Below are positions 12,627-43,440 of a stretch of 64,000 nucleotides of DNA, in pieces. Position 1 is the stretch's first letter. Each line of letters opens with the position of its first letter. The DNA lies in IMG/VR virus record IMGVR_UViG_3300026519_000239, positions 10,336 to 74,335 of that record; one strand, given 5' to 3'. Below the pieces are notes generated by a model. It saw nothing but the letters and a program-made list of their open reading frames with translations, searched no databases and was not told the DNA's origin. The translations under genes were made by a program, and so were the position numbers. This stretch comes from a virus.

Positions 12627-12652
12627 GTGCCTATAACCTTTTGGAGATCGTA

Positions 12653-15600
12653 ATGAGTAAGCTAGACGATCTGTTGTCAGCTCTATCGACTACTGCTGAT
12701 CAGCGAGTAAACGCCGCAATGGATAAGTACACCAACATCTTTGGTGGTCCTTCTCCTGATCAACCAGTTCAAGTCCCAAAACAACAAGAGGCTGAAATTG
12801 CCTCACAGCGAGCGCAAACAACAGTAGAAGCACTGAATCCTCAACAACCTGCCCCTGAAGAAGCACCACTTACTCCTGAACAACGTTTGGCTCAGATCAG
12901 CGGTGTTACGGATATTGATCCAAAGAAGGAGTACATAGAGGTCAAGACACCTGACGGCAAATCCAAACTAGTTGATGCTACCAGTTCAGATGGAGATAAC
13001 ATCACCAGAGCTATCAGGAACACGTATAACAATACAACTGAGCGTGGGTATGCACTGGATACATGGGAAGTTCCTCATGGTGGCAAGAAGCAACAAGAAG
13101 CTTTCTTCAACAGTAACAAGGGACAGAAGCAGCGTGAAGCAGCGGCTCGTATCCTTGGTATTTCTCCTGAGCAGGTTACCGCTGAGCACATCTTCACACT
13201 TGGGCAGAATGCAGCCAAAGAAAGAGCCAGACTCATTGCTGAGCATGGTGGTTTAGTTGGTTCAGTAGAGCTTGGTGATGTACGTAATGATCCAACTACA
13301 GGCAATCGAGTACTGTCTTCTACCAAATTAGCGGATGGTACTGATCTTCGTGACTTATTGAATACGCCTCTACTAAATGCTGATTTCTACAGCAAATATA
13401 ATTCCAGAGGTAGAAGAGATTACGAACTTGGGTCAACTAAGAATCCAGATGGAGGGGCAGTTCTCAGTGACGCTGAAGCTGCTAATCCATCTGCTGTTGG
13501 TTCTTTGGTTCAGATTGGTACCAGTGCTATTGATGCCTTCTTGCGTACTGGTTTAGGTGGCGTAAATGCAGCCGCTAATACTGGTGTACAGATTGCGGCT
13601 GCTTTACAAGGCGAAGGTATTCAAGACCTTACACCAGAAGACAGGCAGATATTTGACAGGATTCGTGACACTGAGAAGAAGGGCAAGACGCTACTCAGTA
13701 AGATCGAAAAAGACCCTGTAGCTTCCAAAATAGATGTCATTGACCAAATGACAAACCAAGCCATTGAAGCTACTGGAGGTACGCCTGAGCAGCCTGTTGA
13801 TAAGCTGGATAAGTACATGCAGGAAGCACTTGCTCCTGAAGAATACGCTATTTGGAAGGGTACAGCTAAGAGACCTGATACTCCTATCCAGAACAATGCT
13901 TTGGACTCTCTCACTAAGAAACCAGAGGGTATTCTAGATACGCTATCTCAATCAGCGGGCTTAGCTGCTGGATTGATATTTGGTTTCGGTACTGTGAAAG
14001 CTGCTGCTAATCCATCTGCTGCTATTCAACAAGCCAGGCAGCAAGTTGAAGGTACTGGTTTAGTAGACAAGACAGATAAGACTAAGTTTCAAAGATACAG
14101 TGAGGTTAAACAGCAACAGGAAACTGCTGCTAAAGCCATTGCTAACCCAGTAGATACAGTACTAGGGACAGAAGGGCGTAACGATCAGCAAGACAGATTT
14201 AGAGTTAACGCCAAGACTGGCAGAGCTGAGTATGTGCCTATGCACAACGCATATGGTGACAAAGCAGCCATGGAGATTCTCGATGCTGGTGCTGAAAGGA
14301 TGGTTAAGGCTGGCGAGAAAGGAGATTACATAGGAGTAGTAAGTGAAGCTGCGTCTACATTATATGACGTAGTAACTAAAGAGAAGACAGCTACAGCCAG
14401 TGCGTTTGCTGATGTTATTGGTTTAGCAGCAGCAACGATGTTTAACAAGAAAGGTGCTGTTGAAGAAGGTACTGGTTTCGTAGGGAAACTTGCTGGATTC
14501 GTAAAGAATCTGCCTAAAGGAGCTAATGGTCCTCAAGCCCTTAATACTGCTTTCAAAGCAGCCAACATCGTTGGTTTACAGCAAGACAAGCTCACTGAAA
14601 TGGAAACCAAATTCACTGAGCTGAATAAAGGTGAAGCTCCTACCCCAGAAGAGTATGAAAAGATCAAAGATCTATCTGTAGTAGCTTCTGCTGTGGATTT
14701 ACTAGGCATTGCTATGTTTACTGGACCAGGCGGTAAGGCAATGTCTGAGATGCTCAGTAAAGCCACTACCAAAAAAGCTGGACAGTTTGCTAGCAAAGTA
14801 CTAGCTGAGATGGCAGGTACAGGTATTAATGGGTTGGATGAGGTAGCTGTAGAAGCCATTACTCAACTCGGTACTAGGCAGCGTCAAGGGGACTTCGATA
14901 AGAAAGCATGGGCAGTATCTTTTCTCCAAGGGGCGCAAGCAAAAGCTCCTGGGGCTGTGCTTGAAGTAGCTACTAAAGGTATTCCATCTATTCCCGGAGA
15001 TGTACTGGACGGCACTGTGAAAGCAGTGAAGATGTACCAGCGTGTCAATGACGTTGCGAAGGGGCACAAGTTCACTATTGATGAAGAAGGGAATGTTCAC
15101 TTCAAAGGGAAGGTGATGCCTGGAATGGTTCCTCCTGATCCAGAGACAGGTAAGTATCCTACTGAGGTTCCTAAGGATGTAGAGAAAGCTATCAAGCAGA
15201 TGATCTACAAAGGGCAGGGAGATGCTGTAGTTAAGCATATTGCCAATACGAGAGCAGTGCTTGAAGGAGAGTTTACTGAAGAAGATCTTCAGAAACGCAT
15301 CATTACTCCTTCTGTAGATATTGTTACAGAAGCCTCCATGGCTGCTGATCAGGCGTTCGTTGATACTGCGGAGGTAGAGTCTCCTGAGACCGGAGAAACC
15401 GTTCCTGCTGAACCTGCGGTGCCTCAAGAGCTTGATGTTACTAATCCAGAGGAAGTTATTGCTGTACTCAAGAACCAAGACATCCCGGTGGTTCAGAGAG
15501 CAGCTATTACACTGGCCGTGCAGTCTCGTATGCAGACTATTTATGGGCAGACTGTAGCTCAGATGCAAGAAGCAATGACTAAAGGAGAACTGGAAGGAGA

Positions 15601-18600
15601 CAAAGCTGAAGCAGCTATTGCTTTATTGGATCAGTATGAAGCTTGGATTGATGTACTGAGTACACAGGTTGATTCTCTGCCTAAGAATGAAAGGGTAGAG
15701 GCAGGCGTTATCTATCAGGAAAAAGGAGATCAATTACTTGCAGATATTATTCGTGGATCAGCACCTGAAGTAACCAAACAGGACACAGCCAAGAGTCCAT
15801 TGGTTCAGTCGTACAAAAAAGTACTGGATTACATCAACACTCGTGATGAGGAAGATAATAAGACTGCTGATGATGTACGAAAAGAGGTACTTCAAGACGG
15901 AGAGAATGCATCAGGTAAGAAAGGACTTATGACTCATATGAAGGCTTTGGCTGTCGCGGGTATCAGTAAGAACCCAGAGGCTTTGGCTTATGCAAGAGCT
16001 GAGGTTAATAGCTTTCTGGCTTCTCAAACTGACAAGCTAAATAAGCTGAAAGAGGCTGTAGATGCATATGAAGAAAGTGGCAATCCTGTACCTGTTTACT
16101 TCAAGAGCAACATAGCCAAGAAAGAACCAAACTTTGTTGTAGATAATCCAGGTAAGGTACGTAACTTTATCAAGGTCATTGAGCAAGAAGTTCAGATGAT
16201 TGGTGAAGTAGCTAAGATGGGAGATGAGCTACACAACAAGTTGAAGAACAATGAACCAATACTTGAGGATGCGTTGGAGAAGCAATTAAAAGAGACAGGT
16301 AAAAAAGTTTCTGATATTGCTAATGCTCCTAAGCAGAATCAGAAGAAGGAAGACAATGTTGCTACCCAGAAAGAAGATAAAGCACCTGTTAATGCTGAAG
16401 TACAGACCACAGATAAGGCTGATACTGCTCCTACTAAGACACAGGTGGATGCTAAGAAAGTTGAGGATAAGCCAAAAGAAAAGCCAGTAGCTAAGAAAGC
16501 CAAGAAGAAGAAAGAGAAGCCAAAGGTAGATGTACTCGGTGACGAGGTTAAAGCTGAGCCTACACCCGAAGAAATCAAAAAAGATACTGAGGATGCTAAA
16601 CAGCAACAAGAAAAAACCAAAGAGCAATGGCTTGAAGATCCTCTTGTAGCTGACATTAAAGCTGCATTTGAAGAAGCTCAGAATCAAGATCCAGAAGATA
16701 ATGCTGATATAGCTGATCTTAAGCCTGTTCTGGATCTCACGAAGACTGAGAAGGTAGCCAAGGAGACTTCCAAGGAAGCAACTCCTATGGTGAAAACAAT
16801 ACAGTCCCATACGAAGAACGTATCTATCCTGATGAAGCAGATAAGTTCTCGTAGGTATATGCCTCCGGGACTGAAGAAGCTGATGGAGTCGGGTAAACAA
16901 CTTACTACTGACTACTTCTTGAAGGGGAGGAAGAATCCTACTGGTTTGTTGGCTCTACCTTCACTGACTGCTATCGGTAATTATCTCAAGGATGTTGGAG
17001 ATACTGGCCTTGAAGCATTCAGGGCAGATTTGCTTGGTGAACTTGGTCCTGCAATGAAGAAGGAGCTATTCAAGCAATTCCAGAATTCAGCTAACTACGT
17101 GATAGGTAGAAAGCTATCTTTGGATAAGTTAGCTACCAGTCCTATTGGTTTGTTTCTAAATGAGAAGAATGAACTGGCTCCTCAGCTACGTAATGCAATG
17201 CTGCACACTGCTGTTGAATGGATTGCTGATAAAAGCGTAGCCAGTGTATTGAAGACTGACAAAGAGGTGTATGCATCTCTTGGATTAGACATCAAATCAG
17301 ACTTCATTACTCCTTCTGTACTGGATGCTCTTAGAGACATGGGAGAGCTGAGATCTAAGTTAGCTGAACAGTTGGGCAATCGTGTACTGGAAGGGCTTGG
17401 TATTGATCTTAACTCCGATGTACCTGATGCTGGATTCAGACAGAGGCTAGTTGGTTCTATTGGATTATCCATGCTGTCTGCTATGGCTAATATCAAGGAT
17501 AAGAAAGGAGAGCCAATCATTCACTTCAACAGAGTTCCCTCTGAGTTGATGGCTGAACTTACTGAGACTGCTTCTGTATCCATGGAAGCCAGTCCTGTGT
17601 ATGTCAGTCTCAATATTCAGAGAGATGAGTATCAACGTCCTGTAATGGATCAATCAGGTAGGGTACGTGTAAACAATCTATTGGCTTACAAGATCAGGAA
17701 GAAGACGAATCAATCTAAAGAAATATACAAGAAGTACATGGAGCTGGCTTTTGGTAAGAAACCAATAACTCGTACTACGAGCTATAAGCCATTCAAAATG
17801 CGTAAGCCAGAGGATATTAAGGATCGTCCTACTCGTAATAATAGCTATGGGCAACTAAGTGAAGCTGAGTTGGATCATGTGAACCAACTGCAACAAGTAG
17901 CTTTCAAAGCCAATCCACTGATCAAGATGATGGATCTTAAAGAAGGAAGGATGGCTATTGCCAAGATGTTCGGGTACGTAGAACCCACTAGAGATGGTGA
18001 TATTCCTTCTTTACCGCTTGATAAGGTGAAAGGTCAGCTAGCCAAGAATGAAGCGATTATCCGTGATCTGGATGCTGTACTGGATAAGCTTTCAGAGCAA
18101 GACCAAACCATAGAAGAACTCACTAAAGCTAGAGATGAGGCTACTGACCCTAAAGACAGGGAACGTTTACAACGTGAGTTAAATCAAGCCAGAAAGAAAG
18201 AAATCTATTTTCCATTCAAGATAAGTACATTTGGTCGTGCGTTGGATAACGCTCAAGATCTAAGTATTCAGAGAAGCAAGATACACAGGAATATCTTCAC
18301 TCCTGCTGAGTCCACTCATACATTCCCGATGAGCGATACCAAATCTATGGAGGCCATTATGAAATCCTTCATAGAGCCTCTTGGTTTGGATCGTGTGCGG
18401 ATGGAGAGTGATCCTACAGGAGAGTTCATGGATAGATTTGCTATCAAGAATGCCGATGGTACATACACTGCATCTGATCCTGTAATAGAGAAGGGAATAC
18501 AGGCTATGCAGGCATTTCTGAGAGATGACTTTTACAAGCCAGAAGACATTACAGCAGCAGTGGATGAGCTTGGTGAAGAAGGACACTCTTGGCTTGCTTT

Positions 18601-21600
18601 AATGGATGTAGCAAATATCCGTACTGCGCTTGAATCAGGCAACCCAGATGCATCGATAACAACTTATAGCTACATCGAAGTAGATGGTATATCAAACGGA
18701 ATTATGTCCATGTTAAGACAGGTGATGTCTGAATTTGATGCCAAAGAAGCAATTAATGATCCAAATAGTTTCAGTGCTGAAGTATTGGATTTTGCGAATG
18801 CAGGCGGTATGTACATTGAAGGAGGTAAGTACCAATCCTACGGAGAGTATCTAGCTGATGGTGGGTATGACGTATACCAGAAGGTGATTATCAAAACTGC
18901 TGATGCTATGGATAGAGCAGTTACAGCCGCTAACAAGATGACTCCCAAGGATGTTACCAATCTACGCATACGTCTTGAGAATGAGCAAGCCAAGTCAGCT
19001 AATAAACGGAACCAGTCGTTGATTGCTGAACTCAAGAGAGAGTTAGCTATTTATGCTGTTAAGGACATCATTCCTGAGTTCGTAGTAGAGGGGACTAATC
19101 AAGTAACCAAGGGCGCAAGGAAAATTGGTAAGTCCTACGTATTGCCTAAGAACTACATGTCAGGAGACAAGGCAGCAAAGGAAGGTGTTGCTAGAGATAT
19201 GTTGGATTCCATGAGAGCTGAGTTGGCTGAATTGGCATCAAAGGTGTCCCCTGTTGCTGTGATTAACAATGATTCGAATGATGCTGATCTTAGAGCATTC
19301 AAGACTGCTGCTAAGCGTATGAATGCATTTCTAAGGCAAGTTAACCCTGAGATACCTGCCTACACGTGGGACACAGCGAGAGAGCCTTTTAGTAAAGAAC
19401 ATGAAGCTCAAGCAATACAAGTCATAGTAGATGGTCTTGGTTCAATACTTGCTGATGGGTATTTTGAAGCAGCGGGTAAGTTTACAGAGACAGGAGGTAA
19501 GTCTCTGAACATTATTGGACAAGCTCAAGCCATTATTGTTAAGCACATTGCTCAGCAACGTATCAATGCTGCGATGGAGAAAAAAGGAGGTGCTGTACTC
19601 AGTGAGGGTGAGCGTCAAAAAATTATGCAGGAGCTTGCTGATGAAGGAATTTATGTAGGAGCCAAGACACCTGATAGTGATGCTGATAGGTCATCATTCA
19701 TTTTGGATGTAGTTGATCGTAAACCAATGGAAGATGCTCAAGGTGGGTACGTACAGAATGACTACTCAGGAGACAGTAGAAGGCCCGGATATACCGTTCC
19801 TGTACGTGAGTTTGGTTTCGTAGATGGAGAGCTTGTAGATACTGGCATCAAGCCAGTGAAGTCAGCTAAAGCCTCTATATACGTTAAGCAACCTAGTTCT
19901 AAGATTGGTTTGAGGATGGCTATTGGTTTGAATATCAACCAAGAGTCAGCTACTAACAGACAGCTTGAAGGTAGCTCATATGATCTATTCGATGCTCAGT
20001 TGAATGATCCAATGAAAGATGCTGAAGCGTCTAAGAAGATCAACAAAGTATGGGAGACTTATCAGCAAGACAACTCCATGATGGAGAATGCTGTTAACCA
20101 GCTTGAGAGACTCATAGAGGCTAGCAAAAAGTTTAATAGCCCTGAACTTACAGGTGAGATCAATAGGTTCCTTGAGGAGCTTAATGATCATCCTGATAGT
20201 CCTATTGTAGGTGATACGCTGGATAAGCTACTAGTTGATGCCAAGAGCATGTCCAATCGTATCAATCAAGCTAGAAGCCAATTCAATCAGGCTGTGAGTG
20301 TATCTGGTCAGTATGACTCTATAGGTAATGCTTATGAAGTCAAAGAATCCAATGTACATGGAAGCTCAGCTAGAAGGATTAATCTGGATACTTTCAAAAA
20401 AGGAGAGTCTGTTCCTGTAACCATGAGCAGTATTTCTATGCTGTGGGCGCAGACAAAGGCAGGGCAGAAGATTGGAGATACCAAGGAAGATGCAGCTTAC
20501 ATGGATGAAATATTCGGTAAGCATATTCTTCCAATGGTTCAGAGAGTACGTGGCCTCACAGTAGCTGTACAAAATAGTAGGTATGAAAGAGGTGGAGCAG
20601 CTAAGGGTAAGAATATTTTCATTAAGAGAAATTCTGCTGTACGTGAGTTAGCTACTGATATGAGTGATGCTGAGATCATGTTGCATGAGTTTACTCACCC
20701 GTTATGGGAAGAGGGATTCAGACAGGATTCATTGTCTTTGGATCAGGTCAGTAAGCTTATGGATGAAGCTATTGCTAGTGAGGAGTTCACTCCTGAAGCA
20801 TTAATGGATAAGAGTCATCCTGATCCAGAAGAAGCCTACAATGCAGCTAAACAGTTGTATGACTACATCACTTCTGATGTACATGAATTTGCTACTTTTG
20901 GTTTAACCAATGCTCGTGTACGAAGAGTGCTTAATCGCATTGAAACCAAGAAGACCAAGGGCAGACCAAAGACACTGTTGAATCTTCTCAGGAGCATATT
21001 TGAGGCTCTACTAGGTAGATGGAAGAGCTATGAGAGTAAGAGTCCTTCTACTATTGGTGTAGAACTTGAGAACATTGCAGGACGTTTCCAACAAGCAGCA
21101 GAAGCATCTAACAAGACTCTGTACAAGAGACTTGAGAATAAAGCATTCAAGGAGGTTAACAAGAAGATTGTAGAGCCAATAGTTGAGTGGCAAAAGAGTG
21201 TTACTGACAGAGCGCCTGATTGGAAGAAGGCTTTGGCTTTACCTGCTGGATTGCTTAGGAGTGAGTACACCACTCAGCTAGGCAAGTTAGGCGATCGGCT
21301 GGTTAAGGAACACCACGGAATATTGGCAGATGCAGCAAGGGAGATGCTTGGTCCTAATAAGGTAACCAGACCATTCCATAGAATGTTGAGTTATGTGAAT
21401 GAGCATGTGGACTCAGCAGCTATTAGAACCACTCAGGCAACCTCTCAAGTCATCACTGAATTGTTTAATAAGAAACTAACTAATAAGCAATGGAAAGCTC
21501 TTACAGATGGGTTACTGAGGACAGATGCGTATGTAGCTGAGCGAGCTATTGGTTTAGATGGATTGAAAGATATTGTATCTAACGATAAGTCAGATGAATA

Positions 21601-23602
21601 TCGGAGTAGTGCAGTAGAAGACATTCGTTCTAATGGAGTATCTAAAAAAGATGTGCATATTATTGAGCAGAAAGTAATAGATTTGGTTCGTGCTACTAAG
21701 GGACTGCCAGTTACTGGAGAGATTGAACCAAATATAGCTGCCATTGCTTATAGTACGCTTGGTAAAGATATTCTGAAGGACACTCCTACTCTGAATAGCA
21801 TTGTGAATCAAATAGGCGTCATGTACTTCGTAGAGTCCTATGGGTACTTGTCAGATAAAAAGAAAGGCATGATCAAAGACATGATGGAAGAAGAGAGTGT
21901 AGGCATTGAAGGGATGCTTGAAATCGTAGCTGCTAACAAGGAGAAAGAGATTGCAGGCAGATACGAGGGAGACCCTCTAAATATGATTGCTGGTGATATA
22001 GGGATCTTTGACCCAGAAGTAAGAATCATGGAAACCAGCAAGAAGAATAAGAATAATCATATTCTTCTGCGTGATCTTGGGAATGGATATGGAGTATTCA
22101 GAAATGGCTACGTAGCTTCTATGGATTATTCCAAGGGATTGTTTGGCTTGACTGATAAGAGTAGGAGACCAGGTACTTTCATATCTTTCGATGAAGCCAA
22201 TAAGATGAAATCCACTGATGGCTTATTTAAGAGATATCGTAACGGTAAATTGATTGGGTATGAGCTGAGGCTTACTGAAAAGGATCAGAACAAACATATA
22301 GACAAGAATCGGCAAGCACATGAGCTGATAGGCAGCGAAGCTGGAAGGATCATGCGTGAGGATAGGACAGAGAAGTACAACCTCGAAGCTATAGACATGG
22401 TTTACGCTGATTGGGAAAGGAAGTATGCCAAGAATCCAAAGCAATGGATCAAGGTATCTACTAATAGCAAGAATAGGCAGGTAGCTGAGTTTGCCCGTAC
22501 GATGCCTAAGCATATGAAGGATAAAGCCAACGAGTTGTTTCCTAATGGTGAGATGTATGTGAGGAAGGAGCAGCTCAATTTATTGCTTGGATTCAGGAAA
22601 CTTTCAGTGGCTCAAGAGATTGAGAGAGTTACCAAGAAGAAGTTACCAAGACCAGTAGTCAAGTCTATTGTTATCGGCCAAAAGCTATGGGAAACAGTTA
22701 TATCTGACGTTAAATCCAAAACTATTCTGTTTACCCCAGCAGTCGTACTAGGCAACCAAATGAGTAACATGCTGTTGCTGAAATTGAAGGGAGTTGACTT
22801 TGAAGATGCCATTAGAGGGCAGGTAGAAGGATTGCGGCAGATCAAGATTCACTTAAAGTTGCAAAAGGAGATTGCAGCTCTTGAGGCTAAGCAGATAGCT
22901 GGGGATGTAAGCCCTACAATACAGAGACAGATTGATCGTAAAAGGACTAGGATGGAAAGCTTGGGTATTCATCCATTGATCAATGAAGGAATCTTTCAGC
23001 CTATCGTAGAAGACCTGTCATCCAGTGAGTTTGGGGATGCTCCTGTTGGCGTAGAGACTCTCAAGCTAGTAAGTCCTAGGTTGGCTGATAAATTGAATGT
23101 AGCTGGTGAGAAAGCACCTGCATGGGCACGTAAGGCAGGTGCTTTAATGATGCTATCCCCTAGTACAAAACTAGGTAACAACATTAGGCTAGCAACATCC
23201 TACAGTGATGTACTGGCTCGGTATGTACTGTTTAATCATCTACGCAAGACTGAACCATCGAAAAGCCCCAGGGAGCATGTAGATGAAATTATGGATACAT
23301 TCGTAGACTATGCTCCCAATACATCTAGAGGTATCCAGTTCCTGAATGATTCTGGCTTGTATATGTACACTAAGTTCTTACTAAGGACTCAGAGAATTAT
23401 TGCAAGAACATTGGCTGATAGTCCTGATCGATTCATTGGGTTGCAGTTGGCTCAAGCAGTAGTTGGGGATTTGCCTGATATTGCGGATTCGCAAATGTTG
23501 ACTGGGATTTCATTGGGAGGAGGAAGGACAGTTACTCCAGATGAAGCTATAGATACAGTAACCCAGTTACCGTTGTTCTATGCACTGAAACAAGTATTTT
23601 GA
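12653..23602 (+). CDS. virion-encapsidated RNA polymerase (N4 gp50-like)
   Basis: ~3,650 aa with no Cys seen; TFGR, EVDGISNG (motif A), RKIGKSYVLPKNY (motif B), LFDA (motif C); GGAG RBS before ATG 12653. Confidence 0.93.
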   Translation: MSKLDDLLSALSTTADQRVNAAMDKYTNIFGGPSPDQPVQVPKQQEAEIASQRAQTTVEALNPQQPAPEEAPLTPEQRLAQISGVTDIDPKKEYIEVKTPDGKSKLVDATSSDGDNITRAIRNTYNNTTERGYALDTWEVPHGGKKQQEAFFNSNKGQKQREAAARILGISPEQVTAEHIFTLGQNAAKERARLIAEHGGLVGSVELGDVRNDPTTGNRVLSSTKLADGTDLRDLLNTPLLNADFYSKYNSRGRRDYELGSTKNPDGGAVLSDAEAANPSAVGSLVQIGTSAIDAFLRTGLGGVNAAANTGVQIAAALQGEGIQDLTPEDRQIFDRIRDTEKKGKTLLSKIEKDPVASKIDVIDQMTNQAIEATGGTPEQPVDKLDKYMQEALAPEEYAIWKGTAKRPDTPIQNNALDSLTKKPEGILDTLSQSAGLAAGLIFGFGTVKAAANPSAAIQQARQQVEGTGLVDKTDKTKFQRYSEVKQQQETAAKAIANPVDTVLGTEGRNDQQDRFRVNAKTGRAEYVPMHNAYGDKAAMEILDAGAERMVKAGEKGDYIGVVSEAASTLYDVVTKEKTATASAFADVIGLAAATMFNKKGAVEEGTGFVGKLAGFVKNLPKGANGPQALNTAFKAANIVGLQQDKLTEMETKFTELNKGEAPTPEEYEKIKDLSVVASAVDLLGIAMFTGPGGKAMSEMLSKATTKKAGQFASKVLAEMAGTGINGLDEVAVEAITQLGTRQRQGDFDKKAWAVSFLQGAQAKAPGAVLEVATKGIPSIPGDVLDGTVKAVKMYQRVNDVAKGHKFTIDEEGNVHFKGKVMPGMVPPDPETGKYPTEVPKDVEKAIKQMIYKGQGDAVVKHIANTRAVLEGEFTEEDLQKRIITPSVDIVTEASMAADQAFVDTAEVESPETGETVPAEPAVPQELDVTNPEEVIAVLKNQDIPVVQRAAITLAVQSRMQTIYGQTVAQMQEAMTKGELEGDKAEAAIALLDQYEAWIDVLSTQVDSLPKNERVEAGVIYQEKGDQLLADIIRGSAPEVTKQDTAKSPLVQSYKKVLDYINTRDEEDNKTADDVRKEVLQDGENASGKKGLMTHMKALAVAGISKNPEALAYARAEVNSFLASQTDKLNKLKEAVDAYEESGNPVPVYFKSNIAKKEPNFVVDNPGKVRNFIKVIEQEVQMIGEVAKMGDELHNKLKNNEPILEDALEKQLKETGKKVSDIANAPKQNQKKEDNVATQKEDKAPVNAEVQTTDKADTAPTKTQVDAKKVEDKPKEKPVAKKAKKKKEKPKVDVLGDEVKAEPTPEEIKKDTEDAKQQQEKTKEQWLEDPLVADIKAAFEEAQNQDPEDNADIADLKPVLDLTKTEKVAKETSKEATPMVKTIQSHTKNVSILMKQISSRRYMPPGLKKLMESGKQLTTDYFLKGRKNPTGLLALPSLTAIGNYLKDVGDTGLEAFRADLLGELGPAMKKELFKQFQNSANYVIGRKLSLDKLATSPIGLFLNEKNELAPQLRNAMLHTAVEWIADKSVASVLKTDKEVYASLGLDIKSDFITPSVLDALRDMGELRSKLAEQLGNRVLEGLGIDLNSDVPDAGFRQRLVGSIGLSMLSAMANIKDKKGEPIIHFNRVPSELMAELTETASVSMEASPVYVSLNIQRDEYQRPVMDQSGRVRVNNLLAYKIRKKTNQSKEIYKKYMELAFGKKPITRTTSYKPFKMRKPEDIKDRPTRNNSYGQLSEAELDHVNQLQQVAFKANPLIKMMDLKEGRMAIAKMFGYVEPTRDGDIPSLPLDKVKGQLAKNEAIIRDLDAVLDKLSEQDQTIEELTKARDEATDPKDRERLQRELNQARKKEIYFPFKISTFGRALDNAQDLSIQRSKIHRNIFTPAESTHTFPMSDTKSMEAIMKSFIEPLGLDRVRMESDPTGEFMDRFAIKNADGTYTASDPVIEKGIQAMQAFLRDDFYKPEDITAAVDELGEEGHSWLALMDVANIRTALESGNPDASITTYSYIEVDGISNGIMSMLRQVMSEFDAKEAINDPNSFSAEVLDFANAGGMYIEGGKYQSYGEYLADGGYDVYQKVIIKTADAMDRAVTAANKMTPKDVTNLRIRLENEQAKSANKRNQSLIAELKRELAIYAVKDIIPEFVVEGTNQVTKGARKIGKSYVLPKNYMSGDKAAKEGVARDMLDSMRAELAELASKVSPVAVINNDSNDADLRAFKTAAKRMNAFLRQVNPEIPAYTWDTAREPFSKEHEAQAIQVIVDGLGSILADGYFEAAGKFTETGGKSLNIIGQAQAIIVKHIAQQRINAAMEKKGGAVLSEGERQKIMQELADEGIYVGAKTPDSDADRSSFILDVVDRKPMEDAQGGYVQNDYSGDSRRPGYTVPVREFGFVDGELVDTGIKPVKSAKASIYVKQPSSKIGLRMAIGLNINQESATNRQLEGSSYDLFDAQLNDPMKDAEASKKINKVWETYQQDNSMMENAVNQLERLIEASKKFNSPELTGEINRFLEELNDHPDSPIVGDTLDKLLVDAKSMSNRINQARSQFNQAVSVSGQYDSIGNAYEVKESNVHGSSARRINLDTFKKGESVPVTMSSISMLWAQTKAGQKIGDTKEDAAYMDEIFGKHILPMVQRVRGLTVAVQNSRYERGGAAKGKNIFIKRNSAVRELATDMSDAEIMLHEFTHPLWEEGFRQDSLSLDQVSKLMDEAIASEEFTPEALMDKSHPDPEEAYNAAKQLYDYITSDVHEFATFGLTNARVRRVLNRIETKKTKGRPKTLLNLLRSIFEALLGRWKSYESKSPSTIGVELENIAGRFQQAAEASNKTLYKRLENKAFKEVNKKIVEPIVEWQKSVTDRAPDWKKALALPAGLLRSEYTTQLGKLGDRLVKEHHGILADAAREMLGPNKVTRPFHRMLSYVNEHVDSAAIRTTQATSQVITELFNKKLTNKQWKALTDGLLRTDAYVAERAIGLDGLKDIVSNDKSDEYRSSAVEDIRSNGVSKKDVHIIEQKVIDLVRATKGLPVTGEIEPNIAAIAYSTLGKDILKDTPTLNSIVNQIGVMYFVESYGYLSDKKKGMIKDMMEEESVGIEGMLEIVAANKEKEIAGRYEGDPLNMIAGDIGIFDPEVRIMETSKKNKNNHILLRDLGNGYGVFRNGYVASMDYSKGLFGLTDKSRRPGTFISFDEANKMKSTDGLFKRYRNGKLIGYELRLTEKDQNKHIDKNRQAHELIGSEAGRIMREDRTEKYNLEAIDMVYADWERKYAKNPKQWIKVSTNSKNRQVAEFARTMPKHMKDKANELFPNGEMYVRKEQLNLLLGFRKLSVAQEIERVTKKKLPRPVVKSIVIGQKLWETVISDVKSKTILFTPAVVLGNQMSNMLLLKLKGVDFEDAIRGQVEGLRQIKIHLKLQKEIAALEAKQIAGDVSPTIQRQIDRKRTRMESLGIHPLINEGIFQPIVEDLSSSEFGDAPVGVETLKLVSPRLADKLNVAGEKAPAWARKAGALMMLSPSTKLGNNIRLATSYSDVLARYVLFNHLRKTEPSKSPREHVDEIMDTFVDYAPNTSRGIQFLNDSGLYMYTKFLLRTQRIIARTLADSPDRFIGLQLAQAVVGDLPDIADSQMLTGISLGGGRTVTPDEAIDTVTQLPLFYALKQVF

Positions 23603-35694: not shown

Positions 35695-36969
35695 TTAAAT
35701 GAGTATTGTGATTCCGTGCTTGTGGCGCGTGAAACCAACTAACATCATCCGTTTCAGTACTTCTGTTTGAGGACAACCACGGATGTCTCGTAAATCCAAA
35801 AATGTATAATCCACTGATAGCCCCATACTAGAATGAGTGGTTCTGAATTCGTATGGGACTATTGTGACATTAATAGAGCCTAAAGCCAGTGGTTGCCTTT
35901 TTTGTGTTATTCCGGGGATGTAGCAGTTAATTCTGCAATTGTTCTGGTTCCGTAATGTCTTACACATAGAAGACACTGAATCTGTCAGCTCTCTTACTGA
36001 GTTACCTGTCTTGGTTTTGATGTTGCTGCATAGCGTTTTGATAGCACCTAAATTTCTTTGTTGAGTAGGACTCATCTGGTCGAAATTAGATATATACTTT
36101 GTTTTTGCATCAAGTACTCTCCCCTTGTGTGCTTCAGATACCCACCTTACGCTTGTATCTTTATTAGCTTGTGTGAATAGATACTCTAATCGTTTAATTC
36201 TCCATGCTTGTACTGACATGGAGTACTTGGACTTAGCGCAGCGATTTATCTGCTCAATGAATTTGGATTCATCAGTCAAGTATCTAACTGATTTGTTATT
36301 TGGTAGATCATTAATATCTCGCTTACCGCTAAACCAATCCAAAGTATGTAGAAATACTTCACGTACATTATCGTTAGCTGGTCTAAATAATGTACTTAGG
36401 TGAAGCTCTTTAAACCCTTTTGTGTACGCTGCTCCAGCACCATCTTCGTTGAAACTGAGTTGGTTTGGATCTCCAAAGAATATAAATCTGGTTTCTGGAT
36501 AGTACTCATCTATAAGTGCAAAGAAGTCTTCTGATATATAGTTCGCTTCATCTATCAGTACTATCGCTGATTTACTGTTTGCCACTCTGGTTGGTATTCT
36601 TGCTTCATAGATAGTAGATCTTTTATATCTGAGCTTGCCGCTATATGTCACTGTGAAGTTAAGTAAGCTGAATACAGTACACTTCTCGTGATTGATTTCT
36701 TCTTCGTCATATACATCTGACATGCTATTTATTGTGTACGTGTAGAAGATATCATTGTTGTGTAGTAGTGGTGTTTTTACTCCAAATGGATCATCTGATG
36801 TCATTGCACGATTACGTTCAATTTTTATAAGCGTATCCATATAGTCCTGTAGCTGTTTAATAAGTCGAGTTTTTCCAGCCCCTGGACCACCTGTGACTAC
36901 TAAGCCACGTTCATCTTCCTTATTCATAATCCAGTCATATATTTCAATAACCATTTCATTATGGTTCAT
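35695..36969 (-). CDS. SF1 (Dda/RecD-like) helicase (N4 gp37-like)
   Basis: GGPGAGKT, IDEA, GDPNQL, TTHSSMG, VGFTR. Confidence 0.8.
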   Translation of the reverse strand: MNHNEMVIEIYDWIMNKEDERGLVVTGGPGAGKTRLIKQLQDYMDTLIKIERNRAMTSDDPFGVKTPLLHNNDIFYTYTINSMSDVYDEEEINHEKCTVFSLLNFTVTYSGKLRYKRSTIYEARIPTRVANSKSAIVLIDEANYISEDFFALIDEYYPETRFIFFGDPNQLSFNEDGAGAAYTKGFKELHLSTLFRPANDNVREVFLHTLDWFSGKRDINDLPNNKSVRYLTDESKFIEQINRCAKSKYSMSVQAWRIKRLEYLFTQANKDTSVRWVSEAHKGRVLDAKTKYISNFDQMSPTQQRNLGAIKTLCSNIKTKTGNSVRELTDSVSSMCKTLRNQNNCRINCYIPGITQKRQPLALGSINVTIVPYEFRTTHSSMGLSVDYTFLDLRDIRGCPQTEVLKRMMLVGFTRHKHGITILI

Positions 36970-38165
36970 TTTGATTTCTCCAATTTGAGTATCTTTCCAA
37001 AGGAAGGCTTAAAATCTTGGTTGCAGTTTTGAGTCATAAGCCAGATAACATTTACTCTGGGCTGATGTATAGGCATAGTTACATATCCATCTGTGGCTAT
37101 GACTATGGTTCTTTTCTTGGATTTCATGTTTTCTCTAATCCATTGAAATACGAAATCCAACGAAGTTCCACCACCTCCAGTAATCTTGATGTCATTGAAG
37201 TCAGCAGTTTTATTAACATTGATAACTTGCTGTACTTTAACGTCCCAAGTAAGGAGAGTTATTTCTATTCCTATTCTTGGGAGCTTCTTAATGACATCAA
37301 GCATCATTCCAATGTCTTCTCCGCTAATAGAACCAGAAACATCCATTGCAAATACCATCTCTATATTTGGTACTTCGTACCTTGCAGGTATAAAACCATA
37401 GACAGCTCTTCGAGAAGGATATGGTGCAGGATACTTTCTAATCATTTTCTGTGCTGTTTTGGTAAGGTATCTGTCCCATTTAATCTTTTTAGTTCTGCTC
37501 TTTTGTATCTTTCTTAGCCATTTTCCTGACATGGTTCCCATGTTTTTATTTTGTATCTGGTCAGCTATTGCAGCAGCTTCAATGGCATTTTCTACATTGA
37601 ACGTAGCTGGATTACTGCCTGTGGTAGGAGTTGAGTCATCAGATTCATCATCACCATCACTTCCATTAGGGATAGGAGTCATTACGGCAAAGGCATCTAT
37701 CACAGCAGCAGGTGGTTGGTTCTGGATTAGCATTTCAAAAGTTTCTTCAAATGAATGACCCCTTAATTGCTTAATATTCGGAAAGCTACCCCACAGAGAA
37801 GAAGGGGCACCTGCTTCTTCTTGGAAATCCAGTAATGAAATATCCATTGCAATGTTCGTTATGTCTTTATTCTGCTCGTATTTCTCAACCCCTTCTGCTC
37901 TGTTCGTATGCTCATGTATGATATGTCCTAGTTCATGTACAAGAGTACGTAGTCGTTCTTCTGTTGAGTTTTTGAACCATTGGTCATACAGAATGATTGT
38001 GTTTCCGTTAGTAGCTCCAGAAATCTTAGGATCATTTTCATATGGGCCTCCTCCATATTTGATAGGCCACCTAGACAATGCATGGAATACGAACGGTACA
38101 TGGAATATTTCCAGCACCGTTTCTCCTACCATGTTTTCCAATGTATGTGTATCAATCGTTGTCAT
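36966..38165 (-). CDS. HEXXH metallopeptidase-vWA protein (N4 gp25-like)
   Basis: LVHELGH, NIAMD, MIDAS DVSGS, GGGGT, TDG. Confidence 0.85.
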   Translation of the reverse strand: MTTIDTHTLENMVGETVLEIFHVPFVFHALSRWPIKYGGGPYENDPKISGATNGNTIILYDQWFKNSTEERLRTLVHELGHIIHEHTNRAEGVEKYEQNKDITNIAMDISLLDFQEEAGAPSSLWGSFPNIKQLRGHSFEETFEMLIQNQPPAAVIDAFAVMTPIPNGSDGDDESDDSTPTTGSNPATFNVENAIEAAAIADQIQNKNMGTMSGKWLRKIQKSRTKKIKWDRYLTKTAQKMIRKYPAPYPSRRAVYGFIPARYEVPNIEMVFAMDVSGSISGEDIGMMLDVIKKLPRIGIEITLLTWDVKVQQVINVNKTADFNDIKITGGGGTSLDFVFQWIRENMKSKKRTIVIATDGYVTMPIHQPRVNVIWLMTQNCNQDFKPSFGKILKLEKSK

Positions 38166-38179
38166 GAGGCACTCTCCTA

Positions 38180-39235
38180 TTACAGTGTCTTCTTAATCCA
38201 CTTTGTGTTTTGGTTCACTACTTCCATGACTGTTTTGTTAGCCAATAGTGAGCTGAAATCCAGCGACTTCTTGCTTAGCAGTTGAGAAATAGTTACTGCT
38301 ATCAGCTCAGGTCTCTTAAAATTCTCTAAGCACTGGATCACCTTACCTGCATTGTCATTAGTGGCTGAATCAATTAATGCAGTAGCCAGTATCCACCTAG
38401 CACTTACAGACATGTCTGTAGTAAGAATTAGCTCTGGATCATTTATGGCTTGCTTCACAGTAAAGGGAGGAGCCTCTCTTACGAAGGTCAGGAAAGTGGA
38501 GCCAATAGTATTCCCAACTGTGGCTTGAACCAGAGCTTTTACCTTCTCTGAATACTTCACTGGCTTATGCATGAACAGTGTACTCAGGTTCTCCCACGCA
38601 CGTGGTGAAGGGAACGCTGGATCGCTCTCAATCGTGTCAGGATCGAACTTGTGGATTGCTTCAGGCATCATTGCAAGGAATGCTCTGATAGTGGCTGAGA
38701 GACCTTTATTTGAAGCATAAGCCAAGAAGTTATTTGTATCTGGCTCAACGTTGATATGCATCATCCTGTTCAGTAGGGGAGCAGGCAGGTCTTCGTCGAA
38801 TCCCCCGTCACTGTACGTATTCCGTGCTGCTACGAATCTTACAAATGGGTGGATTTGGTACGTATCAATTCTGCGCTCTTGAAGGATGCTGTAGACGCTC
38901 TTTTGTGTGCTTGGGTCCCCAGCTTGGATTTCATCGAAAAAGATGACACAAGGACGTTTGAGATCATCTGTGATGAGCGGAACGATAGCAGTAGGGTGGT
39001 ATTGTGTACGTCCCTCATCGTTCACTGAGAGCAGTCCTACAATATCTGTCCTCTCTTTGGTAGACAGTGCAAATGCTCTCATATCCCAGCCGTTCTCCCG
39101 GCACATCTCTTCAATGAGAGCAGTCTTACCAATACCTGATTTGCCAGTCAGCAATACAGGTACATTTTGCTTTACAGCATGTGCAGTAAGATCTAGTGTG
39201 TGTTCAAAGTTAAGCTTGATCATTGGTTTCTCCAA
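38180..39235 (-). CDS. MoxR-like AAA+ ATPase (N4 gp24-like)
   Basis: GKSGIGKT, FFDE, L.NR, FPSPRAWE; paired with the vWA gene. Confidence 0.88.
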   Translation of the reverse strand: MEKPMIKLNFEHTLDLTAHAVKQNVPVLLTGKSGIGKTALIEEMCRENGWDMRAFALSTKERTDIVGLLSVNDEGRTQYHPTAIVPLITDDLKRPCVIFFDEIQAGDPSTQKSVYSILQERRIDTYQIHPFVRFVAARNTYSDGGFDEDLPAPLLNRMMHINVEPDTNNFLAYASNKGLSATIRAFLAMMPEAIHKFDPDTIESDPAFPSPRAWENLSTLFMHKPVKYSEKVKALVQATVGNTIGSTFLTFVREAPPFTVKQAINDPELILTTDMSVSARWILATALIDSATNDNAGKVIQCLENFKRPELIAVTISQLLSKKSLDFSSLLANKTVMEVVNQNTKWIKKTL

Positions 39236-39326: not shown

Positions 39327-41429
39327 TTAAGTGATGAAACGGTGCATAGAGTTAATCATATGAGATGGAACCGATGACTTGTGTGCGTTTAGGCTACGTT
39401 CTTGTGAGCAAGGAACAGTTACCAAGTCAGGTCTATTCCATCTGTCCATGAAGAAACTCATGGCCATATCCCGGAATGTATTCAGATAGCCGGGAGGCAT
39501 CATGAAAGCATCATGGATGTCTATGAGTGCAGGGATGGTTACACCTATCCGTCGAGCCAAAGCACCATCCAGTGAATGGATAGTATTGGCTCCAGCAGCT
39601 AGATTCCTTCCATCTGGGTTGCCTACAGTAATCACCATAGACACCCCACTCTCCTCATCAATAACTACCTCCTTTTTCTGTGTACATACATAGAACGCCT
39701 TATATGTGCCACTGGTATAATCTGAGTGAATGTCAGGCATGCGCACTACACAGTCTTGATCAGTGAACTCTGCAAGTTTGCATTGGTTCAGATGTGTGTT
39801 AACAGCAGGAATTACTTTCTGTATCCCCATTTGCAAAGCCACTGCTGAACTAGCATCCACTCTCTCATACGCAGAAGTACTTCCATACATGATAGGCATG
39901 AGGAGTGTATTCTTGAGGAACTTACGATCATCAGGAGCGTTCCACATACCGGTCTCTTTGGCTGCTTCTAGTACTTCCATGTACACATCTACTGGAGGTG
40001 TATACAGTTCGTCATACCAGTTATCTGTTAGTAGATTGCTAACAGAAGCTGTTTGTACACATCCGTAGATAGCACCAATCCACTGAGTAGCATTGGAAGT
40101 GAAGTCAACAGTGATAAGCCTTCTGCTTACTTCATAAAGATTTCCTTTTCTAAGCAAGTCAATGGTCTTCTCAGCATACTTCCATGCATAGTACTCATTG
40201 TCTTTCTCAGGTGTTTCTACTGTTTTGCGGTTGCACACAATATCTAAGCCATATTGAAGCCTGTCCATGAAAGAAGCTTTCTCTTCCACGAACTTACCTA
40301 AGTACCACAACACACTAGGCACTACCTCAGCTCTTTCTGATTCCAGTCCTTGAAACATACAAATTGCAACATCCTCAGCATCTAGCGTAGGCAGTTGCTT
40401 GATAAGCAGTTCATCTGCTGTTCTTGTTATATTTATCTCCTTAATTATCTCAGGAGTTACAAGACAGTTTCTTAGATGATGGTATTGCTTAATTGCATTG
40501 TAGTTTCTACCGCGGGAATCCAGCTCAGGAATAAACCAAACATCGAAGCCAAGTTCATGATAGGTGTACATCAAATCACGGCATAGATTGTAGTGATAAA
40601 TCACTGACTCTCGCGTGGCTTCCTTGATGTAGTTACCATTTTTGTCTTCTGCTGTGGGTTCCCAGTGCTCAGACAGAATATCTACATCTATATCAAAAGT
40701 CTGCTCAGCCAATGAAAACAATATTTGCTTCTTTGGCTTTTCCATATACTTTGGTACAGATTTTGTATATCCAGTATATCTTCCGTCTTCTTTCAGCTTC
40801 GCAAATACAGCGTTGATAATGTTACGACTAGCAATTGCTGAGAGGCTTTTCGGAACACACATAGGAAGCAAGCCAGTATTGCATTGCTTATCTACGTTAA
40901 TTGCCTTTGGACAGTGAAGATCATGGATATCTATAATACTGCCCTTTACTGTGAAGAGTTTGGTTTCTTCTCCTATGCGTTTCAGCATTTGGTACAAAGT
41001 ATTGCCAGTTTTCTCTACCTCTTCTTCGTACTTCTCACCTGCGTTGAGGGCAGAGATACCATGATGACTTAATACCGTATGCAGCAATCCATGGATAAGC
41101 GTCTGTACAGCCATAGTCTTTGTAGGCTGCATGCTGAGCTTAACTAAGATGGCTGTATACAGTTTGCCAACGATGTCTAATGAATGGTTTGGAAATGCTT
41201 GCACCAGAATTTCTCTGACTTTTGTGAAAGCTAATTTATAGCCTTCATTGTTGTCATAGAGATCAGTCAAATATTCTTTAGCAAATTGCTTTCCTATATC
41301 GTTGCTATACCATTCAAGTATAAATTCATTTACCTTTATGGCTTTATCTGTGTTTGATAAGTCATCTTTATTTATATATCGGATGTAGGCTCCCATAACG
41401 GGAGCCAGTATCTGTGGTTTACGTTTCAT
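39327..41429 (-). CDS. T7-type single-subunit RNA polymerase (RNAPII, gp15+gp16 equivalent in one ORF)
   Basis: DSRGRNY, VDFTSNATQ, RKFLK..MPIMYG, ANTIHSLDG and IHDAF all in one 700-aa frame. Confidence 0.85.
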   Translation of the reverse strand: MKRKPQILAPVMGAYIRYINKDDLSNTDKAIKVNEFILEWYSNDIGKQFAKEYLTDLYDNNEGYKLAFTKVREILVQAFPNHSLDIVGKLYTAILVKLSMQPTKTMAVQTLIHGLLHTVLSHHGISALNAGEKYEEEVEKTGNTLYQMLKRIGEETKLFTVKGSIIDIHDLHCPKAINVDKQCNTGLLPMCVPKSLSAIASRNIINAVFAKLKEDGRYTGYTKSVPKYMEKPKKQILFSLAEQTFDIDVDILSEHWEPTAEDKNGNYIKEATRESVIYHYNLCRDLMYTYHELGFDVWFIPELDSRGRNYNAIKQYHHLRNCLVTPEIIKEINITRTADELLIKQLPTLDAEDVAICMFQGLESERAEVVPSVLWYLGKFVEEKASFMDRLQYGLDIVCNRKTVETPEKDNEYYAWKYAEKTIDLLRKGNLYEVSRRLITVDFTSNATQWIGAIYGCVQTASVSNLLTDNWYDELYTPPVDVYMEVLEAAKETGMWNAPDDRKFLKNTLLMPIMYGSTSAYERVDASSAVALQMGIQKVIPAVNTHLNQCKLAEFTDQDCVVRMPDIHSDYTSGTYKAFYVCTQKKEVVIDEESGVSMVITVGNPDGRNLAAGANTIHSLDGALARRIGVTIPALIDIHDAFMMPPGYLNTFRDMAMSFFMDRWNRPDLVTVPCSQERSLNAHKSSVPSHMINSMHRFIT

Positions 41430-41448
41430 TGTTTTTACCTTCTTTGGT

Positions 41449-41775
41449 TTAGAAGAATTTCAGGTTAGAGCCATTCTTCCTTTTAATAGCTCCAGCAATT
41501 TCACCGGGGTCAACTTGGGTGAACTTAGCTGTATCATGGGACTGCTTAGTAGCAGCCTCTGTGACGATCAATACTCCTTCCATCGTCACGTCCATGACGT
41601 CAATGTTATTATCAATACACCGATCCAGCACAGAGTCCCACAGGGCTGTTCCTGTATTGGATCCAGTAATGTATTTTGTGTTCACCAGTAGTGACAATGG
41701 GAGTTCCAAGTCATAAGTAACCCCTTCTTTGTCTTTCACAGTTGTTTTGATGGTTCCTTTCAAAATTGCACTCAT
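41449..41775 (-). CDS. hypothetical protein
   Basis: GGAG RBS before ATG 41775 (ORF track starts at 41907). Confidence 0.6.
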   Translation of the reverse strand: MSAILKGTIKTTVKDKEGVTYDLELPLSLLVNTKYITGSNTGTALWDSVLDRCIDNNIDVMDVTMEGVLIVTEAATKQSHDTAKFTQVDPGEIAGAIKRKNGSNLKFF

Positions 41776-41803
41776 AATAGTTTCTCCAGTGTGTGTGTGT
41801 AGT

Positions 41804-42139
41804 TCAGTTGTGTTGCGATGGTTTAGCGTTATTGATAGTAGCAGCCCATAGTTTCTGTGCTTCACCTGGGCTTTCTCCAACGTAACGTACCAATGTACGT
41901 GAGCCATAGTTCAGCTCAACGCATTGACGGGCTAATGATGCCCATATACATACATACCCAACCACCTCATCTTGCTGATCTTCTGAGTCAGTCTCATAGA
42001 TAGTTAGTTTGTCTTCCCCTTGGTTTTCAAATACAGGCACGGTGACCAGTACATCCTCTCCACCATGTAGTTCTTCCATGGCTTTGATAAATTTCTCTTT
42101 GGTTAATGGACGTTCATGTTTAGATACTCTGCGTGTCAT
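41804..42139 (-). CDS. hypothetical protein
   Basis: 111-aa ORF, GAGG RBS. Confidence 0.6.
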   Translation of the reverse strand: MTRRVSKHERPLTKEKFIKAMEELHGGEDVLVTVPVFENQGEDKLTIYETDSEDQQDEVVGYVCIWASLARQCVELNYGSRTLVRYVGESPGEAQKLWAATINNAKPSQHN

Positions 42140-42224
42140 TTTACTTTTTCCTCATGATTTCAATTAAAACCATAGCTACATAAGCCAATACAGCAAATGT
42201 AGTTATAACCAGCAGGTTCTGCAT
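42135..42224 (-). CDS. small membrane peptide (29 aa)
   Basis: MQNLLVITTFAVLAYVAMVLIENHEEKVK; stop codon overlaps the next start region; below ORF-track cutoff. Confidence 0.4.
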
Positions 42225-42228
42225 TTAT

Positions 42229-42330
42229 TCAATCCTTACCGTCGAAGTACCAGAATACTGTAAAGAACACTACTGATATAAAAACCAGCAGGTAAGTAGC
42301 TACTTCTCCATTCAAGATTTCGTTAGGCAT
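42229..42330 (-). CDS. small membrane peptide (33 aa)
   Basis: MPNEILNGEVATYLLVFISVVFFTVFWYFDGKD; GGAG RBS. Confidence 0.45.
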   Translation of the reverse strand: MPNEILNGEVATYLLVFISVVFFTVFWYFDGKD

Positions 42331-42344
42331 ATCTTTATCTCCAA

Positions 42345-42875
42345 TTAAAAGTTATATAAAAATCCAAATACAGCTCCTACACGGAGTTTTCTTTCTCCGT
42401 GATAGTACTCCACTATTTCCTGCTCGCATTGCATGAACTCGCCTACAGTACAGCTTGTATGAAGCTCTGTGCGCTTCTTTCTGTACCAGCCCCAGTTAGG
42501 TAGCATGTAGATAGAAACTCTCTTCACAGGCGAATACAGTAATCCAGGGAGTACACCAATTCTGCTGTCATACCTGGCTAATGAAAGCCTGAATGCTGTC
42601 TTCTGGCTTAGTTTGGTTTCCCAGCTTATGACAGGAGTCATTTGGCCAAATGAGTTTCTAAATACTCCTAAGCCAAAGCCAGAGTTATGGATAGCACCAA
42701 TACCTGGAGTGAAAGAGTGTAGCTTCTCCCCTCCTTTCTTCTCTGTGATGCCTACATGGTAAGCACCAACTATGGCTTGGTATCTCCACTCACTGTTATC
42801 TGCCTTGGCTTTGGCAGCCCAGAACCAAACAGCAAAGATAAGGGCTATGATGATTATCTGAGTTCCTGTATTCAT
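42345..42875 (-). CDS. putative small outer-membrane beta-barrel protein
   Basis: Signal peptide (AKA site), PGIG..G.G.FRNSFG, C-terminal FGFLYNF beta-signal. Confidence 0.55.
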   Translation of the reverse strand: MNTGTQIIIIALIFAVWFWAAKAKADNSEWRYQAIVGAYHVGITEKKGGEKLHSFTPGIGAIHNSGFGLGVFRNSFGQMTPVISWETKLSQKTAFRLSLARYDSRIGVLPGLLYSPVKRVSIYMLPNWGWYRKKRTELHTSCTVGEFMQCEQEIVEYYHGERKLRVGAVFGFLYNF

Positions 42876-42879
42876 CTGA

Positions 42880-43266: not shown

Positions 43267-43296
43267 TTTCAATTACCTCATGTGTGTGTTTTGGTT

Positions 43297-43342
43297 TAAG
43301 AGTTCAGGCAGTACTGAATACTACCCAAACCAAACACCCCCC
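43297..43342 (-). promoter_or_regulatory. conserved early promoter/leader module, copy 1
   Basis: + strand TAAG..GGCAGTA-CTGAA-TACTACC..AACCAAACACCC; one of four copies. Confidence 0.55.
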
Positions 43343-43396
43343 AAAACTCAGAAACACTCTATAAGTGGGTTTTGGTTTGCAGTTTACGGAGGGCAT

Positions 43397-43436: not shown

Positions 43437-43440
43437 CACT

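Follow-up and report, generated by a model that had tools for sequence, protein, structure and literature searches.

The gene at positions 39327..41429 (minus strand) of a 64,000-nucleotide window of the IMG/VR virus record IMGVR_UViG_3300026519_000239 (record positions 10,336 to 74,335; coordinates below are those of the window) raises the question of whether RNAPII, the middle-gene RNA polymerase (RNAP) that phage N4 builds as a heterodimer of gp15 and gp16, can be a single polypeptide in a phage that also encodes the giant virion RNA polymerase (vRNAP). In N4, injected vRNAP transcribes the early genes, and RNAPII, brought by single-stranded DNA (ssDNA)-binding cofactors to melted AT-rich promoters, transcribes the middle genes; according to one review, the heterodimeric polymerase accompanies vRNAP in every species but two that encode a vRNAP homologue, and the two features are linked (PMC4496689). 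A single-chain ancestor has been proposed to have been split (PMC5418858, PMC7145618), perhaps by insertion of a homing endonuclease. We find that the product of this gene, here named P0001, is best read as a one-chain homologue of N4 RNAPII, in which the gp15 and gp16 parts are joined, in an N4-like vRNAP phage, a reading to which we give a probability of roughly 85%. It is an informative variant and not a new kind of enzyme.

The P0001 open reading frame (ORF) starts with ATG and runs for 700 codons with zero internal stops; a Shine-Dalgarno-like GAAGG lies 8 nt 5' of the ATG and the stop of the preceding gene 19 nt before it. An earlier reading of this DNA from its letters alone (the sequence-only reading) had placed the DxxGR motif and motifs A, B and C in one uninterrupted 700-aa ORF, and both the frame and the alignments agree with it on the minus strand. 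We mapped the motifs by local-pair MAFFT alignment of P0001 with T7 RNAP, N4 gp15+gp16, RNAP1+RNAP2 of Vibrio phage VCO139 and twenty one-chain or T7-like homologues. The DxxGR motif, read directly as DSRGR (residues 304-308, 40506..40520, minus), corresponds to T7 D421-R425 and N4 gp15 D236-R240, and more specifically D304, R306, G307, R308 and Y310 align with T7 D421, R423, G424, R425 and Y427, that is, with gp15 D236-Y242; by our estimate, a five-residue DxRGRxY match would fall at the right place by chance with a probability of about 4e-5 for the plausible region. Motif A (LITVDFTSNATQ, residues 438-449, 40083..40118, minus) carries the catalytic aspartate D442, equivalent to T7 D537 and gp16 D75. 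In motif B, the O-helix (residues 502-517, 39879..39926, minus), R502, K506, Y515 and G516 match T7 R627, K631, Y639 and G640 and gp16 R134, K138, Y146 and G147. The ANTIHSLDG block (39564..39593, minus) supplies H618 and D621, the counterparts of T7 H784 and D787 and of gp16 H245 and D248, and motif C (IDIHDAF, residues 636-642, 39504..39524, minus) supplies H639 and D640, matching T7 H811 and D812 and gp16 H341 and D342. The alignment to gp15+gp16 and T7 RNAP that the sequence-only reading had proposed thus yields counterparts for DxxGR and for motifs A, B and C. In a 36-sequence MAFFT alignment, the residues named above fall in invariant columns, and every catalytic and nucleotide (NTP)- or 2'-OH-contacting residue of T7 RNAP that was checked recurs in P0001 in the same order, including Y515 (T7 Y639) and H618 (T7 H784). 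Because the active site and the 2'-OH-sensing residues are conserved, we argue that P0001 is an RNA polymerase.

The closest recognisable relatives of P0001 are of RNAPII type. For its C-terminal half, the best profile is the gp16-type phrog_2051 (1.2e-14), with the T7-type phrog_414 at only 0.0036, and BLASTP against RNAP2 of VCO139 gives 2e-13. An exhaustive phmmer search over 1.8 billion representatives returned only two proteins, P0002 (560 aa) and P0003 (649 aa), with E values of 8e-6 and 3e-5, each of which carries the gp15-type phrog_2166 and the gp16-type phrog_2051 in one chain. Other searches reached little. A word-indexed protein search found no protein besides P0001 itself; tblastn gave only 7 matches, all to Vibrio phage RNAP2 and to residues 380-628; a phmmer search of PDB sequences had no significant match and thus did not reach the N4 RNAPII structure 6DT7; BLASTP against N4 gp15 and gp16 gave nothing beyond motif-sized matches; and megablast of the 9-kb neighbourhood against GenBank phages found no nucleotide-level relative. 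By these comparisons P0001 is an extreme sequence outlier, and it is the most divergent example of a one-chain RNAPII so far.

The predicted fold resembles those of T7 RNAP and N4 gp16. An AlphaFold2 model built on the alignment has moderate confidence (mean predicted local distance difference test, pLDDT, 61; predicted TM-score, pTM, 0.66), and Foldseek matches it to T7 and mitochondrial RNAPs with probability 1.0 (E 1e-9 to 1e-11). VIA-align places model residues 191-700 on residues 267-883 of T7 RNAP (Z 20.4, root-mean-square deviation 3.7, 429 residues) and model residues 365-700 on residues 2-404 of N4 gp16 (6dt7_B; Z 19.6, deviation 3.3, 311 residues); longer structural alignments to T7 and mitochondrial RNAPs begin near model residue 55. 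The profile and fold matches also agree with the view that this is a single-chain RNAPII-type polymerase shorter than that of T7 (700 versus 883 aa).

The gp15 and gp16 equivalents are joined by a poorly conserved stretch of about 55 residues, aligned as residues 312-368 (40326..40496, minus), which holds an insertion of about 16 aa directly after DxxGR and in which model confidence is low, with pLDDT below 50 at residues 312-340 and 351-368. The break between the end of gp15 and the start of gp16 in N4 corresponds by sequence to residues 355/356 of P0001 (about 40362-40367), and by structure gp16 residue 2 lies at about residue 365. An in-frame ATG (M358, 40356-40358) falls within three codons of the equivalent of the N4 gp16 start, with a GAGGA (about 40369-40373) some 11 nt upstream; it could permit internal initiation of a gp16-like product, and a methionine would lie so close by chance about once in four.

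Since the split point lies within the linker, we looked at the frame in sample data, where two public runs contain the gene: X1, a hydrothermal-vent metagenome and the probable source sample, and X2, from another study. Contigs from the two samples span the linker region. Those of X1 show 0 differences from the record over the region; they break at 39967-39996 and 40358-40387, the latter beside the N4-equivalent split point, because these 30-mers also occur in CRISPR arrays, and the depths of the pieces are even (26.2, 24.7 and 27.9). A 1079-nt contig of X2, about 97% identical over 39566-40600 with 24 substitutions and 0 gaps, spans both break nodes and the junction. Among the X2 substitutions listed in the ORF (n=29), 21 are at third codon positions; 20 codons are changed synonymously, 8 codons code for another residue and 0 become a stop, and synonymous changes stand at codons 357, 373 and 380, in or beside the linker. 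The stop or frameshift at the junction that could have undone the sequence-only reading is therefore found neither in X1 nor in the independent X2 contig. The P0001 frame is under purifying selection in two samples, and with third-position changes and neither gaps nor stops in X2, we think it very unlikely that the fusion is an artefact or that the gene is decaying.

The genome around the gene is that of an N4 relative. The record is 74,335 bp long, estimated to be 85% complete, and encodes a vRNAP of 3653 aa (12641..23602, plus; phrog_2206 at 1.3e-173), so that the proposed co-existence of this polymerase with vRNAP holds within one genome. A portal, a major capsid protein and a primase, all three of N4 type, and a family-A DNA polymerase are also encoded, and matches to phrog_2206, 1216, 1357, 2135 and 17 range from 1e-92 to 1e-173. 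Directly downstream of the P0001 gene lie an N4 gp24-like AAA ATPase (38180..39235, minus; phrog_1297 at 9e-65, PF07728) and an N4 gp25-like vWA/DUF2201 protein (36966..38165, minus; phrog_1314 at 1.4e-51, PF09967), and the order P0001, gp24-like, gp25-like is the N4 order gp15/16 ... gp24, gp25. A search of the whole 74-kb record detected no gp15-like gene apart from P0001. By its gene content, the contig belongs to an N4-like (Schitoviridae-type) phage, which is uncultured and comes from a hydrothermal vent.

If the phage works as N4 does, the P0001 gene would be transcribed with the rest of the early region by vRNAP injected into the cell. In the product, a gp15-equivalent part (a truncated N-terminal domain, the thumb and DxxGR) would be joined to a gp16-equivalent part (palm, fingers and motifs A, B and C), and this 700-aa enzyme would go on to express the middle (replication) genes, probably with a phage cofactor and from AT-rich promoters that are melted or single-stranded. 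That the protein makes RNA, serves the middle genes and requires a cofactor is inferred.

How widespread is this architecture? A search with P0003 gave 73 protein clusters, about 55 of them of 550-645 aa and several on contigs of 64-86 kb; some of the clusters stand in NCBI or JGI under generic names such as 'N4 gp15-like protein / MAG TPA: DNA directed RNA polymerase [Caudoviricetes sp.]' and 'DNA-directed RNA polymerase [Campylobacter hyointestinalis]'. When IMG/VR was scanned with an alignment as guide, 27 related loci were recovered (scans with P0001 or P0003 as a single protein gave none), of which 14 have one ORF of 520-641 aa with both halves and 11 have two, a gp15-like ORF followed by a short gp16-like one. 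A vRNAP was present in four of five one-ORF records tested, including all three near-complete ones, and in all five split-form records tested. Among the GenBank phages, mostly cultured, the top matches inspected for three one-chain queries were all annotated or readable as two genes (roughly 430 matches in all); with its 505 positions, phrog_2166 is long enough to suggest a longer form in some deposited phage. The gp15/gp16 split, which the sequence-only reading took as a hallmark of the family, is thus typical of characterised phages and not of the whole N4-like group. Its concern that unsplit RNAPII might already be common in described N4-like phages was borne out for uncultured vRNAP-encoding contigs and not for the deposited phages inspected, which have the split form. 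A literature search found no paper describing an unsplit RNAPII in vRNAP phages, which is no proof that none exists. Because the one-chain architecture is already widespread in uncultured N4-like phages, the novelty of P0001 is modest.

Whether P0001 has always been one chain was addressed by phylogeny, with an 87-row tree (LG+C20 PMSF) for the part equivalent to gp16 and T7-like RNAPs as the root. P0001 falls in the RNAPII clade, which is set apart from the T7-like outgroup with 100% support in the SH-like approximate likelihood ratio test (SH-aLRT). A clade of 18 rows, all one-chain (SH-aLRT 99), is sister to a mixed clade with split forms nested in it, and P0001 stands beside the one-chain locus L011 inside the mixed clade, in a sub-clade (SH-aLRT 87) to which N4, VCO139 and further split forms belong. 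A tree in which the split forms all share one origin is worse by 45 log-likelihood units and is not rejected (approximately unbiased test, p-AU 0.114; reduced set, LG+G4), and we therefore do not claim several independent splits. As the outgroup is single-chain and the basal clade is all fused, parsimony makes the one-chain state probably ancestral in the RNAPII family. The one-chain state of P0001 was most likely retained from a single-chain ancestor and not regained by fusion; between the two options of the sequence-only reading, 'fused or ancestral unsplit', the single chain itself stands and the ancestral option is favoured by tree topology, not proven by it.

The opposite history, in which the P0001 lineage descends from a phage with split gp15 and gp16 genes that fused later, when the stop and the intergenic region were lost, is in our view doubtful. 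It would fit the place of P0001 in a sub-clade shared with split forms, outside the basal all-fused clade, and also the linker, which is unusually long, unconserved and modelled with low confidence, much as one might see if an old spacer between two genes had come to be translated; few changes would be needed, given that some cultured phages have RNAP1 and RNAP2 in frame with two stops between them. However, the placement itself is unreliable, since the P0001 branch measures 5.9 against a median of 0.28 (about 20 times longer), and for the same reason the tree cannot be relied on to tell an ancestral from a re-fused state in this lineage. The nearest neighbour and several other members of the sub-clade are one-chain, retention costs no extra event given the one-chain outgroup and basal clade, and a single origin of the split forms stays compatible with the data. 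Retention from a single-chain ancestor is thus the history that we prefer.

Besides this long branch, several results weigh against a one-chain RNAPII homologue and were set against the evidence above. Most concern the N-terminal half, which sequence comparison hardly recognises: phrog_2166 does not match it, hhalign of P0001 with the one-chain family aligns residues 419-676 alone, in the C-terminal part, a targeted hidden Markov model (HMM) of the gp15-equivalent part matches residues 235-311 weakly (E 0.001 in a two-sequence search), and BLASTP against VCO139 RNAP1 is collinear but weak (E 0.06). Folded alone (pTM 0.38), the N-terminal 370 residues gave only helical-bundle noise in a wide PDB search (Z ≤ 6.3), a result with no bearing on the fold. 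The two weak matches are collinear and end at DxxGR, and this collinearity, taken with the DxxGR block and the fold of the entire protein, makes equivalence of this half to gp15 a reasonable, if tentative, reading. A Pfam search of P0001 gave no match at E ≤ 0.1, PF00940 included, although its one-chain relatives do carry PF00940; given that P0001 is very divergent and phrog_2051 does match, we regard this miss as a limit of sensitivity. The one irregularity among the aligned motifs is in motif B, where the spacing from K506 to Y515 is one residue more than in T7 RNAP and relatives. Ten ORFs of 121-404 aa (41449-54754, minus), in the presumed early/middle region upstream of P0001, have no PHROG match at E ≤ 0.001, and no gp1-, gp2- or Drc-like cofactor was detected among them in this search; as the ssDNA-binding cofactors of RNAPII are poorly conserved (PMC7145618), the missing match is uninformative, and any such cofactor would sit among these ten ORFs. 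Finally, the junction was checked on assembled contigs, with X1 probably the source sample. From such points one could argue that a horizontally acquired single-subunit RNAP, for example of Autographiviridae, plasmid or mitochondrial type, took over the locus: divergence is extreme, the Pfam and PDB sequence searches are empty, the N-terminal half lacks a gp15 profile match and, in fold comparison, T7 and mitochondrial RNAPs score just as high as N4 gp16. We consider such a replacement improbable, for the best profile is gp16-type, 11 orders of magnitude ahead of the T7-type one, the only database matches (P0002 and P0003) are one-chain RNAPII proteins, the tree sets P0001 with RNAPII apart from the T7-like outgroups at full support, and both the size of 700 aa and the genome position are RNAPII-like. 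It is highly improbable that P0001 is a catalytically altered or repurposed polymerase-fold protein, primase-like or regulatory for instance, instead of the middle-gene transcriptase, as the extra O-helix residue, the very fast sequence evolution and the lack of detected cofactor homologues might suggest: each checked catalytic and NTP- or 2'-OH-contacting residue is conserved, Y515 and H618 included, the gene is under purifying selection and a primase and a DNA polymerase are encoded elsewhere in the genome. An assembly or sequencing artefact, in which an indel error or a chimeric join at the CRISPR-shared k-mer 40358-40387 merged two neighbouring genes, is barely credible; the X1 Logan contigs do break exactly at the two 30-mers, one of them beside the split-point equivalent, but these breaks are accounted for by repeat-spacer junction contigs, depth is even across them, the X2 contig crosses both nodes and the junction with no gap, substitutions fall mostly on third positions of the P0001 frame on either side of the junction and many relatives have the same one-ORF architecture. 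A one-chain RNAPII homologue therefore remains the reading that we adopt.

Compared with known enzymes, P0001 belongs to the same sub-branch of T7-like RNAPs as N4 RNAPII (gp15, 269 aa, and gp16, 404 aa; PDB 6DT7), which it resembles in its small size (700 versus 673 aa), in its reduced N-terminal domain and in its genome position upstream of gp24 and gp25 homologues in a vRNAP phage. It differs in being one polypeptide and not two, in extra segments at about residues 170-232 and 312-340 and one additional residue in motif B, and in its very low sequence identity to N4 RNAPII; no gp1 or gp2 homologues were found here. With the uncultured one-chain RNAPII-like polymerases of 550-645 aa (for example P0003, P0035 and P0042, and the loci L011, L017 and L025) it shares the fused architecture and the catalytic columns, whereas it is 50-150 aa longer and only 15-19% identical to them. 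Like T7 RNAP (883 aa; PDB 1CEZ, 1S76 and 8DH5), it is a single chain with a right-hand fold and the catalytic counterparts, but it is 183 aa shorter, has a reduced N-terminal promoter-binding domain and would act in a three-polymerase programme of N4 type and not of T7 type.

Several arrangements seen among the relatives are recorded here. In two cultured schitoviruses, Erwinia phage MIF8 (L032:1341-1460) and Delftia phage RG-2014 (L033:948-1070), RNAP1 and RNAP2 lie in the same frame with two stops within 4-8 codons between them, and the tblastn alignment runs through the stops as one piece, so that these phages are few mutations away from a one-chain form. Three proteins of 497-536 aa (P0058, P0059 and P0061) have a gp16-like polymerase half fused to a DUF4326 domain (PF14216); one of them, with a name taken from Moraxella bovoculi, sits on a contig of 2.3 Mb and so is probably part of an N4-like provirus, and N4 gp12 is a DUF4326 protein too. 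In one IMG/VR N4-like phage (L019:1761-2622), the gp15-like part occupies two ORFs (183 and 126 aa) followed by a 330-aa gp16-like ORF, which is either a three-piece polymerase or a frameshift. As for vRNAP, its match in the record of L025 (G003) is broken by TAA stops, one and four of them in two segments, and vRNAP-matching open frames reach 4823 aa in G002 (L017) and 6651 aa in G007 (L022), far more than the roughly 3500 aa of N4.

Short metagenome contigs with repeat-spacer junctions also bear on the host. The foreign sequence joined in them to phage 30-mers assembles to a 36-nt repeat (GTTCGACCGACGCCCTGACGAAAAAGGGATTAAGAC) that is absent from the phage and occurs once in GTDB genomes, at a contig end of a Gammaproteobacteria metagenome-assembled genome (JALSHZ010000015.1; locus L034:1-2400), where it adjoins Cas2, Cas1 and a reverse transcriptase (RT). 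Four protospacers, listed without strand, lie in about 2 kb across the two samples. In X1, one was seen by its first 30 nt (39967..39996), in a 59-nt contig and a loose end joined to the repeat, and one by its last 30 nt (40358..40387), followed by the same repeat; in X2, one at 41425..41454 is preceded by the same repeat and another starts at 39566. Because spacers against the phage carry the repeat of this genome in two samples, a gammaproteobacterial host is likely. All four repeat-spacer junctions have the same orientation, which is only suggestive (chance 1/16). If the array is transcribed towards ...ATTAAGAC, the typical 8-nt tag of CRISPR RNAs (crRNAs), the crRNAs would pair with minus-strand mRNAs, those of the polymerase gene and of the gene upstream of it, and the orientation would be suggestive of an RNA-targeting, RT-associated (RT-Cas1) type III system.

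A bolder scenario would have vRNAP and one-chain RNAPII together as the ancestral state, the heterodimer as a later and possibly repeated split, and P0001 as a separate deep lineage in which promoter recognition needs no gp2-type recruiter, thanks to the extra segments and the altered O-helix. We hold this to be unlikely; if true, P0001 would be a self-sufficient minimal RNAP. Natural one-chain RNAPIIs in vRNAP phages are the intermediates predicted by the split-ancestor hypotheses, and they make it testable when, how often and why the split occurred, through comparative phylogeny and matched biochemistry of one- and two-chain enzymes. To this set P0001 adds the most divergent example so far and a hydrothermal-vent habitat, an incremental gain for an architecture that is abundant in public metagenomes.

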